DNA of 32,000 bases, taken from contig CP104013.1 in NCBI GenBank assembly GCA_025839675.1, positions 300,001-332,000 on the forward strand, written 5' to 3'. Position 1 is the stretch's first letter; each line of letters starts with the position of its first letter. This DNA is from Candidatus Lokiarchaeum ossiferum. Its GTDB lineage: Archaea > Asgardarchaeota > Lokiarchaeia > Sigyniarchaeales > Promethearchaeaceae. Position numbers and translations under genes: made by a program. The notes under the pieces were generated by a model. That model saw nothing but the letters and a program-made list of their open reading frames with translations, was not told where the DNA came from and searched no databases. Positions 3,079 through 21,219 of this stretch are shown here, in pieces.

Positions 3079-4731
3079 TCATATCGAATTTATTTCTTCA
3101 TCATTTTCTATCTCAGGAAAGAATTTGTGGATTCCAATCCGAAATTTTTCGCGAAGAATTTCCAGTTTATCAGGTTCAGCAGTTAAGTTGACATTTCTTA
3201 TATATGACAAGCATTCATCATCTAAAATAAATTTCCTTAACAAAATCAATCGATTCCGTAAATTTCGATTATGAGTTGCTACCAAAATACTAAAAAGAAA
3301 TTTGTCCTCACTTGATAACACCACCAACGAAATCCCTTCAAATTCTATAGATTTTAATGAACCTTTTATAAAAATTGTTTCAGCTAAGGAGTTAATTGCA
3401 TGAATTAATGCACCAACTAATTCTTTTGGTGATCCATGTTGTATATCAAACTTTCCTTTTGAGTAAAGCATTATACCTGAAGGTGAAACGATAAAAATCG
3501 CATTAGCTTTCCCCATTTTAAGCAAAGTATGAGGTACTATTAGAATGAGCAGAAAAGATATTATTAAAATACTGATAGAAATCCAGATTGAAATGTATAT
3601 TTCAAATCTTTGATCAAAAAATCCACCAATTAATGATCCTATGAAATCAAATATAAAACTTATCCCAAAAGTTAATCCAGAATAAAGAAATCGCAGTCTG
3701 GGAGGGGTAATATCAGCTATTTTTAGAACTCCAAATTCTAAGATCAAGTAATAACCAGTTACCTCAAAAAGAAGACTTATTACTGAGAACGGTAAATAAA
3801 TTCCAATAAACATTGAGATTAAAGTAGATATGATCGCCATTAAGAATATTAAATATCTTCCCCCTTTATCAGAGAGCCATCCAAATATAAAAGCACAGGA
3901 ACCTGAAATTATAAAACTAAGAGCTCGCAATGAACAAGTTGAATCAATACGAAGATGGGCCAAGATTAACGAATGGGCAATTCCATTTCCTATAAAGAAG
4001 ATAGAGACTGCAGAAATTGTAAAGATCACATTTTTATCAAATATGGGAATTATTTTTTCTCGGATTTTGGGACTTAAATTATGGATTGATTTTGGCTCCT
4101 TCCATCTAAAAAAACGCCAGAGAATTACCATACCAAATATTGCTATTCCTATCCAAACTAAGATTAAAATGTTAAGATTTATCTCAGGTTTAAGGTTGAA
4201 GCTATAATTTATCATAGTAATTATCGATGTAAAAAATAACGCTAAGCCAATGCTCAATCCAATGGTTTTCCCACGATCTTCTGGAAATAGTGAGCGACTT
4301 ATCAATAATGTTAGATAAGCGTATGATCCATAGCTCAAAAAGCTAAAAATGGGGAGATAGATGAAAAACCAAATAATTTTACTCAAATTCGGTGAAACGT
4401 GAGTCAATAAATATGATATTGATAAAATTAAAATTGTTACTGAAAAAAAAAAGAGAATAATTTTTTTATTATTTGATTTCAGATTAAAATTTTTAAAAAA
4501 CAAGAAAATCCAGATGATACAAAACAATATTGCCGAAAAGAGCATTATAATAAAGAAATTTTGAAAGAATATTGTCCTTTCATCAACATTAAAACTAATA
4601 AATGCGAGATTTAATAATATGGTCCCTCCAATTCCAGCATCAATCAAAAAACATAGAAACGCAATTAATAGGGTATAACTCACTTCTTTTTGTTTGAAAC
4701 TAAATTTTTCATTATCAATTGAATGTTGCAC
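3079..4731 (-). CDS. MFS-type 12-TM membrane protein fused to a C-terminal soluble alpha/beta (longin/roadblock-like) domain
   Basis: 550 aa. I count 6+6 hydrophobic helices with a basic central loop. MFS motif-A-like FGWLSDKGGRY lies between TM8 and TM9, with PEDRGKTIG after TM4 and TPPRLRFLYSG after TM10. The C-terminal ~145 aa (approx. 3082..3520) is soluble: AIFIVSPSGIMLYSKG...ELVGALIHAINSLAETIF...LKSIEFEGISLVVLSSEDKFLFSILV. Start codon is GTG. Confidence 0.7.
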   Translation of the reverse strand: MQHSIDNEKFSFKQKEVSYTLLIAFLCFLIDAGIGGTILLNLAFISFNVDERTIFFQNFFIIMLFSAILFCIIWIFLFFKNFNLKSNNKKIILFFFSVTILILSISYLLTHVSPNLSKIIWFFIYLPIFSFLSYGSYAYLTLLISRSLFPEDRGKTIGLSIGLALFFTSIITMINYSFNLKPEINLNILILVWIGIAIFGMVILWRFFRWKEPKSIHNLSPKIREKIIPIFDKNVIFTISAVSIFFIGNGIAHSLILAHLRIDSTCSLRALSFIISGSCAFIFGWLSDKGGRYLIFLMAIISTLISMFIGIYLPFSVISLLFEVTGYYLILEFGVLKIADITPPRLRFLYSGLTFGISFIFDFIGSLIGGFFDQRFEIYISIWISISILIISFLLILIVPHTLLKMGKANAIFIVSPSGIMLYSKGKFDIQHGSPKELVGALIHAINSLAETIFIKGSLKSIEFEGISLVVLSSEDKFLFSILVATHNRNLRNRLILLRKFILDDECLSYIRNVNLTAEPDKLEILREKFRIGIHKFFPEIENDEEINSI

Positions 4732-4787: not shown

Positions 4788-5007
4788 GAATAACCTAAAA
4801 AAAAAGTTTTAATCGATTAAGATGTGATTTTTTCTAGTAAATCAAAGGTTAATAAAGCCACACTTATTAATTGTTTAAAATTCACTGTATCCACCAATTC
4901 AAGATAATAAGATGTGGCATCAAGAATCCTTCCCATATTATACCAGAATATGTGTGTATCTATGTTCTAAAGTTCCTCCCATGTCTAAACATGTATAGTT
5001 TTTTTAT
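4788..5007 (-). pseudogene. Decayed internal fragment of a paralog of the 6595..7725 gene
   Basis: Manual alignment pairs 4788..5007 with 6752..6970, with most positions identical. The minus-strand translation is KKLYMFRHGRNFRT*IHT[1-nt frameshift]FWYNMGRILDATSYYLELVDTVNFKQLISVALLTFDLLEKITS*SIKTFF. The intact gene reads KKPYMFGHGRNFRSLKPPFFWYNVGTVLDATSYYPKLVNTLSFKQLLSVALLSFDSKGEITPKSIKTFF. The fragment has two in-frame stops and one frameshift. Confidence 0.75.
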
Positions 5008-5217: not shown

Positions 5218-6330
5218 TTATGGTATAAATGAAAAATTCTTTTGTACATATTGGGATGCGGGTTCAAACATTGATATATGTTCCATTTCTTCATAGAATT
5301 CCGAAAATTTGCTATGAAAATCCTTAGTAAATTGAATTAAGGCATTTTTCAAAGATTTTGAGGCTTGAGTCGCTTCTAACATAAATACTAGCGGATGTTT
5401 ATGATCCCGATATAGAAGAATAACTCGATCTGCTAAGTGGATTTCTGATATTTCTCCCGTTAGAAGAATAGATTGAAAGACTTGATCAATTCCAATAATT
5501 AAACTACTAAGTAAGGTTTGTTGATCTGCTTCATTCATTGTTTTTGGAGTTTTTATTGTTTGTTCTGAAATTGATTCGAATTTATTTTTACTTTCCCAAT
5601 TATATGAGAAAATAGGTATTCCATTCTTTTCTTTAATTACATTCAGTTGATACACTTTAAAAGGTAATATAAAGGCTAATTTTGGCTCTTTTATCATTGC
5701 TATTGTCATAATTAATACTCCAATACCGAATGGTAACATATAAATTCCTGGCACCACCAAAGTGATGCCTGTAAGTATCAATATTGTTGTAATTACTCCC
5801 AAAATAAAACCTCCAATCAGATTTATTAATGTTATTGATTTTAAATACAACGGTGCAACGATATAGAGTTTGAAACAATAATAAACAAGTAATCCACTCA
5901 TAAACAAATTCAACGCAGTTTGTGTAAATCGTAATACACCTACCATTTGAAAGCTCGGATCTCCATTATCAAATGGTAAGGGTGCAATATTTCCTTCAAG
6001 AGATGAACTATAAAGAACAAGTGTCCCAAGAATTGATACCAAAATCAATTTTATTGGATCTAACCTTATTCTAATTAGAGAATCGACAAAAATTGTGATT
6101 ACTACTCCCGTAGGAACTAAAACCCAGATACTTATCCGATACAACCAAATACTTTCAAATATATAAGAAAATGCTTGAAATAATACAAATAATGATAAAA
6201 AGAACCATCCAATTGCCATTATCAAATAATGTCTAAATTTTTTGTTTTTAAAATTGATTAGAGCTAAAATAAATGAAGTACAAACTGGAACTAATGCTGA
6301 TAAGCAAAAAATTGCTTCAAGGGTAAACAT
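5218..6330 (-). CDS. 7-TM membrane protein with a C-terminal soluble alpha/beta (longin/roadblock-like) domain
   Basis: 370 aa with an ATG start. Seven hydrophobic helices span residues ~5-213. A soluble domain follows (approx. 5221..5686): YQLNVIKEKNGIPIFSYNWES...QQTLLSSLIIGIDQVFQSILLTGEISEIHLADRVILLYRDHKHPLVFMLEA...LKNALIQFTKDFHSKF. Confidence 0.65.
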   Translation of the reverse strand: MFTLEAIFCLSALVPVCTSFILALINFKNKKFRHYLIMAIGWFFLSLFVLFQAFSYIFESIWLYRISIWVLVPTGVVITIFVDSLIRIRLDPIKLILVSILGTLVLYSSSLEGNIAPLPFDNGDPSFQMVGVLRFTQTALNLFMSGLLVYYCFKLYIVAPLYLKSITLINLIGGFILGVITTILILTGITLVVPGIYMLPFGIGVLIMTIAMIKEPKLAFILPFKVYQLNVIKEKNGIPIFSYNWESKNKFESISEQTIKTPKTMNEADQQTLLSSLIIGIDQVFQSILLTGEISEIHLADRVILLYRDHKHPLVFMLEATQASKSLKNALIQFTKDFHSKFSEFYEEMEHISMFEPASQYVQKNFSFIP

Positions 6331-6594: not shown

Positions 6595-7725
6595 TTATTT
6601 TTTCTTAGTGGTGTCTTTTGATCCTGCGAATTGGTTTCCATCTAATTTTAAGACTTCGTTTATTAAAGAAACATTAGTATCGACTGCTCTTTTGCAAATG
6701 CTGGACAGATAATAAGTAACCCATGGGGAAAAATTCTTTTTCTGACCAAAGGAATAACCTTTAAAAAAAGTTTTAATCGATTTAGGGGTGATTTCTCCTT
6801 TTGAATCAAAAGATAATAAGGCTACACTTAGTAATTGTTTAAAACTCAAGGTATTAACTAATTTGGGATAGTAAGATGTGGCATCAAGGACCGTTCCAAC
6901 ATTATACCAGAAAAAGGGGGGCTTTAATGACCTGAAGTTTCTTCCATGTCCAAACATATATGGTTTTTTCGTAGATCGATCATTCCAGCAATTAAGTAAA
7001 GTTTTTCCGCACTTTATCAGATTTGCAGGCCTTTTGGCTAAAGGTATCTTATAATAACCTCGTAAAACATCAATTATTAACATTGGACAAACTTCATTTT
7101 TTCTTCCAGGTCCTCGAAATTGAGATTTCAATCCAGGTAAACATTTCCATCCAATGCCGTTCTCAGTATCTTCAACTAAATCGTTAATACGTGATATTGC
7201 GGATTTAACCGCTGATTTTTGTTCATATCCAAATAGAAGCATCAATGTAGTTATAAGATGATGATCACACAAGATACTTTCCCACATATTTAATTTTTCT
7301 TTTGTTTTCCGGTTATATACTTCCCCATACCAGAGAAATTGCCCTGTATCCTCGTCAGTATGCTCCAATAATGAGTCTAAAATATTTTTGATTCGAATAT
7401 CATCTTCTACCTTTATCCCCCAATTATGAAGCAATAATAGTTGATTAGGAATATAGCGAGGATCATTATGACCTGAAACCTTAAAATCTTTCCAACGGGG
7501 TAAATTTGATAATATAGCTTCTACTAAAGGATCCTTGAGCATTTTAGCTTTAGCATTTTGGACTGTGATATTTTTCTCTGGAAGTTCTAAAAGATCTGTG
7601 AGAGTTTTATAAACAGTGAAGGATTCTCCAGATCGTAACAATCTTTGGCGATTATCTTGTGGTATTAATTTTAACCAACTTGGTTTCACAGATAGTTTTT
7701 CTAGAATTTCGGGAGAATCTTCCAT
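6595..7725 (-). CDS. Conserved-looking hypothetical protein (possibly an alpha/alpha-toroid repeat fold; tentative)
   Basis: The long ORF is 6595..7842, but its first 39 codons are low-complexity (MSFCKCNNHNISS...) and overlap the divergent gene. The ATG at 7725 (MEDSPEILEKL...) is the more plausible start. D-x-G-x-x-W-like elements recur (EDTGQFLW, ENGIGW). I recognise no firm family. The partial paralog remnant at 4788..5007 shows amino-acid-level conservation, which supports this as a real gene. Confidence 0.6.
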   Translation of the reverse strand: MEDSPEILEKLSVKPSWLKLIPQDNRQRLLRSGESFTVYKTLTDLLELPEKNITVQNAKAKMLKDPLVEAILSNLPRWKDFKVSGHNDPRYIPNQLLLLHNWGIKVEDDIRIKNILDSLLEHTDEDTGQFLWYGEVYNRKTKEKLNMWESILCDHHLITTLMLLFGYEQKSAVKSAISRINDLVEDTENGIGWKCLPGLKSQFRGPGRKNEVCPMLIIDVLRGYYKIPLAKRPANLIKCGKTLLNCWNDRSTKKPYMFGHGRNFRSLKPPFFWYNVGTVLDATSYYPKLVNTLSFKQLLSVALLSFDSKGEITPKSIKTFFKGYSFGQKKNFSPWVTYYLSSICKRAVDTNVSLINEVLKLDGNQFAGSKDTTKKK

Positions 7726-7842
7726 ATTGTGAATTTTAATAACATTAATGCATTTTTTAATTTTCCCAACAAAACAGAAGATACAGTTTTTAAAGTAAAT
7801 GGTGCTTGAAATATTATGGTTATTACATTTACAAAAACTCAA

Positions 7843-9210: not shown

Positions 9211-10065
9211 TCAATCTTCTTTGGTCATAAGAGTTTGATTCGTTTTATCTCGAATAAATAATAAACATGCAATCAAACCTCCAAGGATACTGATCCCCAC
9301 ATAAATCCAATAAAGAGGTTGAGCTGAAGCGGGTTGATCGTCATAAAACATATAGAATATCACAAAGGCCGCATTGAAGTTCCCATGCAACAGAATCATG
9401 ATTAAGATGTTTCCCTTTGCTTTTTGATAAATGTAGGAGTATATCAGCGAAGTGAACATTGTCATTAAGATAAATCCCAGATATGGTGTAATGTTGTGCG
9501 AATCCCAAAGCATGAACCAGAGAGGTGTGTGCCAAATTCCCCAGATTGCACCAATAATAAGGCTAGTTGTGATAGGAGAATATTTTTTTAACAGTTGGCC
9601 TTGTAAATACCCACGCCACCCGATTTCTTCTTGACCTCCCCCTAAAACTGAAACGAAGACTATATAGGGAATATACAACAAATATGGAATAAACCAAGGA
9701 TCACTCGGTAATGGGCTCGGAGGGAGGGATAATCCGAAAATCCATCCAATTAAATGAGATAAACCATTGATCAGGAGAGGTAAAATGAAGATAATACTTA
9801 AAAATAACCCCCATCGGTTAATTCCCTTTCTTGAAAAACATTTTTTTAGATGTTCTTTAAATGATTTGTTTTCACTCCGTAAAGCCATAAATGATCCAAA
9901 AGCCGGAGCAAAAGCTCCGATAATAAGAGCAATGAAATAAATTGCATTTGACAATTCTTCAGAACCTAATGAAATAATCCCGAAATATTCTAACACGGAA
10001 GGAATCCACAAAATCCATGAAAATAGAAATGTAGAAGCTAAATAAGTGAGTATGTTTCGACTCAT
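9211..10065 (-). CDS. CPBP-family (CAAX/Abi) intramembrane glutamic metalloprotease
   Basis: 284 aa, polytopic. Motifs are GGGQEEIGWRGYLQ (EExxxR), WGIWHTP (FxxxH-like) and LLHGNFN (the third His motif). Confidence 0.85.
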   Translation of the reverse strand: MSRNILTYLASTFLFSWILWIPSVLEYFGIISLGSEELSNAIYFIALIIGAFAPAFGSFMALRSENKSFKEHLKKCFSRKGINRWGLFLSIIFILPLLINGLSHLIGWIFGLSLPPSPLPSDPWFIPYLLYIPYIVFVSVLGGGQEEIGWRGYLQGQLLKKYSPITTSLIIGAIWGIWHTPLWFMLWDSHNITPYLGFILMTMFTSLIYSYIYQKAKGNILIMILLHGNFNAAFVIFYMFYDDQPASAQPLYWIYVGISILGGLIACLLFIRDKTNQTLMTKED

Positions 10066-19400: not shown

Positions 19401-20456
19401 TTAACATTTTTTTACAATTGAGTTGTACACTTTTTCAATGTGTTTTGTTTGTTCCTCAAGTGAAAAAACACTTTTTGCAAAATCATGACCTGGAATTGAG
19501 AAAATATTAAAACTTGGATTGATTAGCTCAATTTCATTTACCTTTAAATTTTCATCTTTTCCAATTAAGTCCAATCTCATATAATGAAAAGGATATTCCT
19601 GTTCAACTATTGAAATTATTTTATCAATAATTTCTCGTTCTTTACTACTAATTTTATATTTTTCTAAAATAGCACCATTATAATAATCAACGATTTTAAT
19701 ATTTTCATCAGAAGGCATGAAATTTCTTCTTGATAATGTGATTTCTTTATCAATAATCGCTATTTTTATTTCACCGTATTTTAAAAAATCATATTCAAAT
19801 TTTTGAACGATTATTCTTTGAGAATTGATAATTTTTTGATAAGTTGAAGCATGTTTTTCAAAGGTATTATGATTATAACTTAAATAATATTGTTCTAATT
19901 CTTTTAACGACAGTTTTCCATCTAAAATAAGGATTCCTTTAGCCCTTTCTGAAATCAAAGGTTTTGCAATATAAATTTCTTTATCATTGTTTAATTGAAT
20001 TAATTGATCTAAAGTTTCAATATTTGAAGTTGGAATAACTGGAACACCAAGTTTAGATAGATGAATCAAATATTCTTTGGAAGCATTTTGAATAATGGTT
20101 TCCACAGGATTCATAAATTTTGAATTAGGAAAATTTTTTCTTAAATAATCAATTAAATTGAAAAATTCTTCTGTTTGTTCAGATAAACCGTATGCTATGT
20201 TCTTAGATTCTATTTCTTTTCCAAAAACTCCAAAATAAAATAAATCTATTTCATCAAAAGGGACATTAATTTCTTTTTTAGATTTATAATCTAAAGCAAT
20301 TAAATGATTTGAATTTTGATTTCTTCTACAATCAATTACATATGAATTAACTCCTTTTGATTTAAAAAATTCTAAATAAGGAGTAGCTTCGTCTGTAAAT
20401 TGATATTCCTTTGTGTTCAAAGGATTCAAATATTCCGCAATTATACCGATTTTCAT
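19401..20456 (-). CDS. ATP-grasp-fold ligase (RimK/GshB-like; substrate unknown)
   Basis: The ORF opens at a TTG (20480). The ATG at 20456 (MKIGIIAEY...) follows GAGGAAG and lies 10 nt after the racemase stop. The pre-ATP-grasp and ATP-grasp layout is: NASKEYLIHLSKLGVPVIPTS, IYIAKPLISERAKGILIL, IIVQKFEYDFLKYGEIKIAII, HYMRLDLIGKDENLKVNEIELINPSF. Confidence 0.65.
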   Translation of the reverse strand: MKIGIIAEYLNPLNTKEYQFTDEATPYLEFFKSKGVNSYVIDCRRNQNSNHLIALDYKSKKEINVPFDEIDLFYFGVFGKEIESKNIAYGLSEQTEEFFNLIDYLRKNFPNSKFMNPVETIIQNASKEYLIHLSKLGVPVIPTSNIETLDQLIQLNNDKEIYIAKPLISERAKGILILDGKLSLKELEQYYLSYNHNTFEKHASTYQKIINSQRIIVQKFEYDFLKYGEIKIAIIDKEITLSRRNFMPSDENIKIVDYYNGAILEKYKISSKEREIIDKIISIVEQEYPFHYMRLDLIGKDENLKVNEIELINPSFNIFSIPGHDFAKSVFSLEEQTKHIEKVYNSIVKKC

Positions 20457-20466
20457 TTTTCTTCCT

Positions 20467-21219
20467 CTATACTTCTGCAATTCCTTCCTCAGAAACAGAA
20501 TTAATTATAATATTTTCATTTGATTCAAATAAGGCTCTTTCAACTGCAGCTTTTGCAATAATCTCTGAAGGATTGATGAGAATATACGGTACTTTTTTTG
20601 GATCTAAAAGCATTGAAATCTCTGTGCACCCACAAATAATTAATTCAGCACCTGATTTTGTTAAATTATTTCCTGCCTTTTTTAGAAGTTTTCTTGGATA
20701 TTTCTTATATTTAGATTTAATTCCCATCCTCCCATAAATTGATTCCATAACTAATAGTTCTTGATCTTCTTGATTTGGGATAATTGTTTTTATTCCTTCT
20801 TTTCTTAATTCTTCTTCATAAACTTTGCTTTTTATTGTTCCAGTTGTTGCAAGCAAACCTACTTTTTTAACATCAGGATAATTTTGAGAAATAAAATTAA
20901 CTGTTTCTTGAATCATATTTAAAATAGGAATTTTTACACTTGATTGAACTTTATCAATAAAAAAATGTGCAGTATTACAAGGTATTAAAATAAAATCAGA
21001 CCCTATTTGTTCGAGAACTTTTGCTGTTTTAATCATTTCGGGTATAGGATTTTTTCCCCCATATAAAATTGCCTTAGTTCTATCTGGTATTTTTGGGTTA
21101 CTATAAATTATTGTTTGAATATGGTCTTGATCTTTTTTAGCCGGAGTTAGTCAAATTATTTGTTTATAAAGTTCATTAGTTGCTTCCGGGCCCATTCCAC
21201 CTAATATTCCAATTTTCAT
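20467..21219 (-). pseudogene. Asp/Glu-racemase family gene (aspartate-racemase-like) interrupted by an in-frame TGA at codon 23
   Basis: From the ATG at 21219 it reads MKIGILGGMGPEATNELYKQII-[TGA 21151..21153]-LTPAKKDQDHIQTIIYSNPKIPDRTKAIL...MIKTAKVLEQIGSDFILIPCNTAHFF...LIICGCTEISMLL. That is one frame of 250 codons with both catalytic Cys motifs. The ORF track reports only the part after the stop (20467..21036). Confidence 0.85.

Follow-up and report, generated by a model that had tools for sequence, protein, structure and literature searches.

In the 32-kb stretch of the Candidatus Lokiarchaeum ossiferum genome analyzed here (32,000 nucleotides, hereafter the window), a single minus-strand gene at positions 3079-4731 was found to encode both a transporter of the major facilitator superfamily (MFS) and a longin-type domain covalently attached to its C-terminus. 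An earlier note, made from the letters of this DNA, had described the locus as an MFS transporter fused to a longin/roadblock-like soluble domain (i.e., a candidate transceptor) in a possibly Asgard-like genome. The open reading frame (ORF) was indeed present in the ORF list of the window, uninterrupted, exactly at the coordinates given and 550 aa long; all strings quoted in that note were located in its product (the four from the soluble part at residues 411-502), and the guess regarding the source organism was correct. The locus is thus one continuous gene that encodes both parts, and the architecture of an MFS transporter carrying a covalent cytoplasmic longin-type domain can be considered secure, with very little room left for doubt.

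The database model of this gene is shorter than the ORF. The last 408 residues of the 550-aa product were 100% identical to the L. ossiferum database protein P0001 (annotated as "hypothetical protein"), which begins at an internal codon and lacks the first 142 conserved residues, corresponding to transmembrane helices 1-4 (TM1-4; window 4303-4731). Conserved coding sequence was found to continue upstream of residue 143 in P0005, L002, and L001: P0005 (544 aa, locus L004) aligned with the window protein from residue 1 onwards at 37% identity, the N-terminus of the copy in a Loki metagenome-assembled genome (MAG; L002, 3889-4632, with an ATG start) reads MNSIDEQIKFSFKQFEV and matches MQHSIDNEKFSFKQKEV in the window, and the frame in metagenome contig L001 was both open and conserved upstream of the deposited start. 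Because of this upstream conservation, the 550-aa version should be taken as the real gene model, in which case the start at residue 143 was probably mis-called and the P0001 model should begin at the GTG at 4731 instead.

Conservation in these same homologs spanned the protein from its N-terminus to its C-terminal tail, so 3079-4731 is not a chance ORF. Mis-assembly, or false fusion of two separate genes, was also considered and rejected, since the junction between TM12 and the first strand of the tail (β1) is unbroken in all members with enough sequence (i.e., the window protein, P0002, P0003, P0004, P0005, P0006, and P0008), and therefore continuous across independent genomes and metagenomes. 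The domain was joined directly to TM12 in every such relative.

Hydropathy, structure prediction, and structure comparison concurred on the 6+6-helix MFS fold that had been proposed for the N-terminal ~400 aa. Twelve hydrophobic segments were evident in the membrane part, and the full-length AlphaFold2 (AF2) model, built from an 8-sequence alignment (mean predicted local distance difference test score (pLDDT) of 70.3 and predicted template modeling score (pTM) of 0.70), contained 12 long helices arranged as 6+6 with a long basic central loop that includes a loop helix (helix pLDDT mostly 70-90). Comparison of this model to the PDB with Foldseek yielded 208 matches at E<=1e-3, and the best 50 of these 208 were all MFS proteins, with target-normalized TM-scores of 0.45-0.65; the structural matches listed include PfHT1, SV2A, VMAT1/2, MFSD10, NorA, GLUTs, and ferroportin. 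At the sequence level, the Pfam MFS_1 model (PF07690) matched the window protein with an E-value of 1.2e-5 and 24.8 bits (profile positions 3-300) and P0002 with an E-value of 8e-8 and 32.0 bits, both scores being under the gathering cut-off of 33.4 bits, and a precomputed PF07690 match is listed in the protein database for P0001 and P0002. The membrane part returned no NCBIfam match and no PDB sequence match.

MFS motif A (i.e., G-x-x-x-D-[RK]-x-G-R-[RK]) occurs in the TM2-TM3 loop and/or as a repeat in the TM8-TM9 loop. The GWLSDKGGRY string was confirmed to lie between TM8 and TM9, as the earlier note had it, and the PEDRGK and PPRLR loops mentioned there were likewise found. No motif A was present at its canonical position in the TM2-3 loop (KNFNLKSNNKK). 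Predicted inside loops contained 25 Lys+Arg residues vs. 4 in outside loops, and because of this bias both termini, and hence the tail domain, are predicted to be cytoplasmic. Moreover, several intramembrane polar residues were kept in the homologs covering the helices concerned, i.e., Asp31 in TM1, Asn/His252 in TM7, and Glu322 together with a Tyr-Tyr pair in TM10. Since these residues are conserved, a putative binding or coupling site appears to have been retained, which suggests that the membrane part may still bind a substrate or proton rather than serve as a mere anchor.

Compared to known MFS transporters, the fusion protein shares 12 TM helices split into halves of six, a central loop that is long and basic, cytoplasmic termini, a G-x-L-S-D-K-x-G-R motif-A-like loop, and loops of the "P-E-D-R-G" type that follow TM4 and TM10. 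It differs from them by its sub-gathering Pfam score and by the motif A missing from the TM2-3 loop, and it adds a folded C-terminal longin-class domain of ~145 aa that was found described for no MFS protein in the open-access literature.

This C-terminal domain is connected to TM12 via a basic linker of ~10 residues. An AF2 model of the domain, built from an 8-sequence domain alignment (pLDDT 68.8, pTM 0.66), was assigned strands by DSSP at domain positions 15-21, 27-32, 65-70, 73-79, and 85-90, and helices at 42-57, 95-108, 111-117, and 126-143. The resulting β-β-α-β-β-β-α-α-α order (E-E-H-E-E-E-H-H-H in DSSP notation) bears out the strand/helix pattern reported earlier for the last ~145 aa and agrees with the α/β sandwich of the longin/roadblock superfamily, whose antiparallel sheet is five-stranded. 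In a Foldseek search with this model, 46 of the 50 top matches were longin or roadblock proteins, the other four being bacteriophytochrome chains at ranks 16-48. The best match was the TRAPPC chain 7b6d_E (E 6e-4, TM-scores 0.51/0.56), and the list further comprised TRAPPC 7u06_D, Tca17, sedlin, synbindin, Nprl in GATOR1, ζ-COP (COPZ1), AP2/AP1 σ, the longin domains of Sec22b and VAMP7, Fuzzy-Inturned, Mon1-Ccz1, LAMTOR subunits, MglB, and MglC. Many of these matches are subunits of GTPase platforms (i.e., TRAPP, GATOR1 Nprl, Ragulator, Mon1-Ccz1, Fuzzy-Inturned, and MglB/MglC).

Weak sequence signals pointed in the same direction. When the family profile was compared to the PDB, the best matches were three MglB entries (E 0.03-0.05), which recurred with the full-length profile. 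Fuz_longin_1 was the commonest Pfam match among members of the MFS-fusion family and of the 7-TM family described below; in the former it was matched by 2/8 members with a best E-value of 1.3e-3, and the weak Pfam matches of the relatives ranged from Fuz_longin_1 at 1.3e-3 to 0.03 to LAMTOR5 at 0.18. The window tail itself (residues ~405-550) gave no Pfam match even at E<=10 and no NCBIfam match, a single-sequence PDB search with it gave no match, and none of the tails examined reached the gathering threshold of any Pfam model for longin or roadblock domains. The resemblance to the longin/roadblock class put forward in the earlier note therefore holds on the Foldseek top matches, with the MglB and Fuz_longin_1 signals in agreement; an unrelated fold or disorder in the tail, and the lack of any MFS match in the membrane part, were looked for as well, and none of the three was found.

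Taken from the model, the tail is thus predicted to have a longin/roadblock-class fold. Within this class, roadblock domains have an N-terminal helix before β1, whereas longin domains have extra C-terminal helices (PMC10933270). The tail fits the longin arrangement better, since no soluble helix precedes β1 and extra helices follow α2. Because no Pfam longin or roadblock model was reached at threshold, the tail is filed at the fold/superfamily level only, as a new Asgard-restricted sequence family that has no Pfam model. What is new is the architecture and the sequence family, both of which are built from known folds.

The tail shares its β-β-α-β-β-β-α-α order with longin domains such as those of TRAPP (Bet5/Trs23/TRAPPC2), Mon1-Ccz1, Fuzzy-Inturned, Nprl2/3, the FLCN/C9orf72 type, σ/ζ adaptors, and SNAREs, and its best structural matches among these are full-length, spanning 137-149 of 156 columns. 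With roadblock/LC7 proteins (MglB/MglC of Myxococcus, LAMTOR2-5 of Ragulator, and CvnB of actinobacterial conservons) it shares the α/β core, but alignments to them cover only ~80-100 residues; moreover, a helix precedes β1 in roadblock domains, whereas the fusion protein has TM12 and the linker at this position and its extra helices at the C-terminal side. Its placement is also different from that in longin SNAREs, in which the domain is N-terminal on a single-pass protein instead of C-terminal on a polytopic one, while most other longin proteins are soluble rather than membrane-tethered.

A related tail was found on the protein encoded immediately upstream (5218-6330), a ~7-TM protein whose soluble C-terminal ~155 aa have the same strand/helix order. 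The two tails were not recognized as similar by BLASTP (E 0.76), and their homology was seen only by profile-profile comparison, in which hhalign aligned them (alignments A3 and A7) with a probability of 95.1% and an E-value of 3e-8 over 129 columns. The real score of 52.7 was clear of those of 60 column-shuffled versions (12.7±2.1, maximum 19.5, maximum probability 2%) and of the reversed control (15.8). Since this homology stands well apart from the shuffled controls, one Asgard-specific longin-type domain forms the C-terminal module of two kinds of polytopic protein with unrelated scaffolds, i.e., MFS and 7-TM. The 7-TM family counted 12 Asgard homologs (P0010-P0021) in Lokiarchaeia, Hodarchaeota, and Promethearchaeota MAGs, of which 2/10 members weakly matched Fuz_longin_1, and the window protein 5218-6330 itself had no Pfam and no PDB sequence match. 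Both families have the tail directly after the last TM helix and end in a similar aromatic/acidic stretch (FSFIP(EYD) in the 7-TM family vs. YFPEIE in the fusion), whereas they differ in membrane scaffold and in spread, the 7-TM family being distributed more widely across Asgard lineages.

Table 1. Positions in the window of the fusion gene, its parts and motifs, and the features next to it
Feature	Window position	Strand	Remarks
Complete fusion gene	3079..4731	-	550 codons + stop, GTG start; MFS and longin-type domains in one polypeptide; Ca. Lokiarchaeum ossiferum
Divergent 12-TM MFS-fold domain	3526..4731	-	residues 1-402; 6+6 helices, both termini predicted cytoplasmic; Pfam, AF2, Foldseek
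Linker, predicted cytoplasmic longin-type α/β domain, and conserved tail FFPEIE	3082..3525	-	residues 403-550; AF2, Foldseek
Predicted secondary-structure elements of the tail			β1 409-415, β2 421-426, α1 436-451, β3-5 459-484, α2 489-502, α3 505-511, α4 520-537 (residues)
GWLSDKGGRY, motif-A-like loop TM8-TM9	3853..3882	-	residues 284-293; ISDKIGRY / LSDKFGRY in homologs
PEDRGK, loop TM4-5	4267..4284	-	residues 150-155; kept in homologs
PPRLR, loop TM10-11, pseudo-symmetric counterpart of PEDRGK	3691..3705	-	residues 343-347; kept in homologs
Internal start codon of the deposited 408-aa model	4303..4305	-	residue 143; P0001 begins MISRSLFPEDRGK ("LISRSL")
370-aa ~7-TM protein, upstream neighbor	5218..6330	-	C-terminal ~155 aa (~5221-5685) homologous to the tail of the fusion protein
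Degraded copy of window 6752-6969 (inside 415-aa ORF 6595-7842)	4788..5004	-	in the spacer that separates the fusion gene from 5218..6330

A number of further observations were made around these two families. The 415-aa ORF 6595-7842, from which the degraded copy in the spacer derives, had no Pfam match. An MFS gene was present within ~1.3 kb at 3/8 loci with the 7-TM family (L010 5934-7301, L017 8-832, and window 3079-4731), and these three MFS genes were mutually unrelated at the BLASTP level; their proximity to the 7-TM family could be due to chance or to functional pairing. As relatives of the fusion gene, the L010 and L017 genes were rejected, being unrelated to it and to each other, and so was the 553-aa gene upstream of the L006 7-TM homolog, which encodes a repeat-rich surface protein. 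A 269-aa soluble protein upstream of the L002 homolog was likewise discarded as a roadblock-like candidate (hhalign probability <1% to either domain family). Elsewhere in the window, the 189-aa Asp/Glu racemase ORF at 20467-21036 (minus strand) matched profile positions 58-210 of 211 only and appears N-terminally short; it overlaps by 14 nt the start of a 359-aa ORF (19401-20480, minus strand) that is without a Pfam match. No RNA family was found in the window with Rfam.

Regarding function, we tentatively propose, at a confidence somewhat short of probable, that the tail acts as a membrane-fixed longin platform, probably dimeric, that recruits a soluble partner (a small GTPase being the most plausible one) and is coupled to the state of the transporter. 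Like other longin/roadblock domains, the tail would pair into a dimeric platform at the inner membrane face, the second subunit being either another copy of the tail or the paralogous domain of the neighboring 7-TM protein. This platform would bind a soluble partner, the likeliest being one of the numerous small GTPases that Lokiarchaea encode, and either the conformational or substrate state of the transporter would be read out by the platform, or the state of the partner would gate transport. The analogy behind this proposal is that longin/roadblock dimers serve as GTPase platforms from bacteria to eukaryotes, and that Loki genomes encode ~40 longin and ~40 roadblock proteins, some of which are fused to GTPases (PMC10933270, PMC4917890). 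Taken by itself, the GTPase step of the mechanism is rather doubtful.

Several points weigh against the proposal, starting with the structural basis. The Foldseek matches of the tail have E-values of ~1e-3 and TM-scores of ~0.5, its sequence matches to known families are all sub-threshold, and the confidence of its model is moderate (pLDDT 69), dropping to pLDDT 40-60 in the full-length model. Some longin domains, moreover, have roles unrelated to GTPases (i.e., in SNAREs, σ/ζ adaptor subunits, and SRX). The adjacency of the two longin-domain genes was not kept at the other related loci examined and occurs only in L. ossiferum. In addition, the spacer between them holds a copy of window 6752-6969 that is 79% identical across 218 nt by blastn (E 4e-50) and 69% identical by tblastn, its frame being interrupted by a stop codon and a frameshift, and because this frameshifted relic sits between the two longin-domain genes, it points to a fairly recent local duplication or rearrangement. 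Finally, 3/5 lineages of the fusion family were found to be disrupted or truncated (see below), and the fusion gene may be dispensable.

The genomic context offers points against a GTPase link as well as hints of one. No small GTPase was found in Pfam scans of 27 of the larger ORFs of the 32-kb window, in line with the earlier statement that it holds no GTPase gene. The inspection of related loci for nearby small-GTPase genes, which the earlier note had suggested, did not turn up a conserved GTPase neighborhood: a GTPase lay within ~4 kb at 3/11 loci vs. ~15% expected by chance, which is close to chance and not significant. Specifically, the gene for P0011, the closest ortholog of the 7-TM neighbor (55% identity; metagenome contig L005, 866-1984), follows an Arf/Ras/Roc gene of 193 aa (180-761) on the same strand at a distance of 105 nt. 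In L018, an Arf/Ras protein of 339 aa is encoded on the opposite strand, 1.3 kb from a 7-TM family member, and in L002 a gene of the Ras family is found at 3.3 kb from the MFS-longin homolog. No GTPase was present in the 4-10 kb flanks examined at L004, L006, L008, L010, L016, and L017. The tandem at L005 is the only suggestive case, and its arrangement suggests that P0011 and the Arf/Ras gene are co-transcribed in an operon-like manner. In the window, the ORF 9211-10065 (minus strand) was assigned by Pfam (E 8e-16) to the Rce1-like type II CAAX prenyl endopeptidase family. Eukaryotic Rce1 acts in the processing of prenylated small GTPases; since the prokaryotic family is broad, no inference is drawn for this ORF. 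The chance expectation of ~15% within ±4 kb was derived from a density of ~100 GTPase genes in 5-6 Mb (PMC4917890). As a rule, Asgard GTPases do not share operons with roadblock or longin genes (PMC10933270), because of which the genomic context neither proves nor disproves a GTPase link.

Part of the same evidence fits a tail that is an autoregulatory or oligomerization module only, which would dimerize or gate the transporter in the manner of STAS, CBS, or RCK domains and would have no GTPase output. The roadblock and longin folds are intrinsically dimeric (PMC10933270), the window and the related loci offer no GTPase and no conserved GTPase neighborhood, respectively, and in the searches made the domain was always attached to polytopic membrane proteins and never free. 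However, its presence on two unrelated scaffolds fits a generic partner-recruiting module better than a transporter-tailored gate, and the apparent co-transcription of one 7-TM ortholog with an Arf/Ras gene also argues against a purely autoregulatory role, so that we regard this alternative as a serious one, yet unlikely.

The MFS-longin fusion family is tiny, at ~8 sequences. Only five real relatives were retrieved when 1.84 billion representative proteins were searched exhaustively with phmmer, and a profile search of a 5.8-billion-protein index also gave five; a scan of a genome collection found the P0005 locus only. Two metagenome scans returned nothing, or generic MFS motif matches only; the alignments A1 and A3 are too variable for pattern scans. 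A match to P0007 (1498 aa, 7 stretches) was discarded as repetitive and spurious. The survey of related genomes for this architecture, also proposed earlier, thus showed that the fusion recurs, the P0005 gene being intact over 544 codons at L004; together with the 550 codons of L. ossiferum this makes two intact copies, and the L001 copy ends at a contig end. The L002 copy is interrupted by ~190 nt of AT-rich, in-frame sequence containing several stop codons (L002 4600-4800); this insert is flanked by a short GTTATTTAT repeat, showed no convincing terminal inverted repeats, and could be a miniature inverted-repeat transposable element (MITE)-like insertion, an intron-like element, or an assembly error. 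P0006, a Kariarchaeaceae-type homolog on contigs from at least three samples (L011 1-1005, L012 2-424, and L013), is truncated at TM11, with TM1-10 replaced by a TnpB/IS200-605 OrfB-like ORF (22-nt overlap, zinc ribbon and RuvC-like motif), i.e., an insertion sequence (IS) entered the gene. In a Kariarchaeaceae MAG (L003), only the last 119 codons were kept; neither ARAGORN nor Rfam confirmed the tRNA-like DNA upstream of this remnant.

Both this rarity among 1.8 billion representative proteins and the 5.8-billion-protein index, and the interrupted L002, IS-truncated L011-13, and remnant L003 copies, together with the local rearrangement of the window region, are what would be expected of a decaying, lineage-specific accessory gene without important function in L. 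ossiferum, its fusion being an accident in the course of being lost. Against this, both intact copies conserve motifs in the membrane part and in the tail although they share only 37% identity, which argues for long-term purifying selection wherever the gene is kept. Moreover, the domain is also kept in the broader 7-TM family, and decay is deemed improbable. Finally, a tail acting as a PAS/GAF/profilin-like sensor that binds a cytoplasmic metabolite and allosterically regulates transport is quite improbable, since the kinship of longin domains with GAF and PAS (cited in PMC4917890) and the bacteriophytochrome photosensory-core (GAF-containing) chains in the Foldseek list (ranks 16, 28, 37, and 48) have to be set against the poor superposition of these chains (TM-scores 0.30-0.36, root-mean-square deviation 9-14 Å), the longin or roadblock identity of every better match, and sequence signals that indicate MglB and Fuz_longin_1 rather than GAF or PAS.

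The proposed platform on a transporter resembles known couplings in its logic. In eukaryotes, the solute carrier SLC38A9 is coupled to the GTPase-regulating platform Ragulator-Rag. SLC38A9 has the APC/LeuT fold and PQLC2, a second such carrier, is a PQ-loop protein, so that neither is an MFS protein and the carriers are not homologous to the fusion protein. PQLC2 is coupled to C9orf72-SMCR8-WDR41, a GTPase-regulating longin/roadblock platform (PMC7039192), and a reading of the fusion protein as a nutrient-sensing transceptor, which the earlier note had put forward on the model of such eukaryotic couplings, would rest on analogy with this case. In both carriers the coupling is non-covalent, substrate-dependent, and experimentally shown, whereas the predicted platform-like domain described here is covalently fused. 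The actinobacterial conservons, with a membrane sensor, a roadblock protein, and a small GTPase, also resemble the proposed logic (PMC13343842, PMC13621833), but the platform is a separate polypeptide in conservons and in Ragulator, as it is in MglA-MglB, instead of being fused to a membrane protein. In the open-access literature searched, neither an MFS nor a 7-TM protein fused to a longin or roadblock domain was found described, which agrees with the earlier statement that no characterized transporter is fused to such a domain.

Asgard genomes encode ~100 small GTPases and dozens of longin/roadblock proteins each, and the route by which these reach membranes and the signals they read are a standing question. 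Those Asgard proteins that were tested in human cells did not localize to membranes there (PMC10933270). Transporter- and 7-TM-tethered longin-type domains offer two experimentally tractable candidate docking sites on the membrane side. A more general version of the proposal, distinctly unlikely in our estimate, is that Asgard archaea tether GTPase platforms permanently to the membrane, with a longin-type domain fused to polytopic substrate- or ligand-sensing receptors (in this locus an MFS transporter and a 7-TM receptor-like protein from adjacent genes) that would recruit or regulate small GTPases. If true, these fusions would represent, in a single polypeptide, a forerunner of the way in which eukaryotes couple transporters to Ragulator, C9orf72, or TRAPP, and would answer how Asgard GTPases without lipid anchors reach membranes. 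If a GTPase partner were found, the nutrient-sensing logic of solute carrier, longin/roadblock platform, and GTPase would predate eukaryogenesis. Even without such a partner, the locus adds a longin-like sequence family that lacks annotation, a domain architecture new to the MFS, and a correction to a gene model of an Asgard archaeon in culture.

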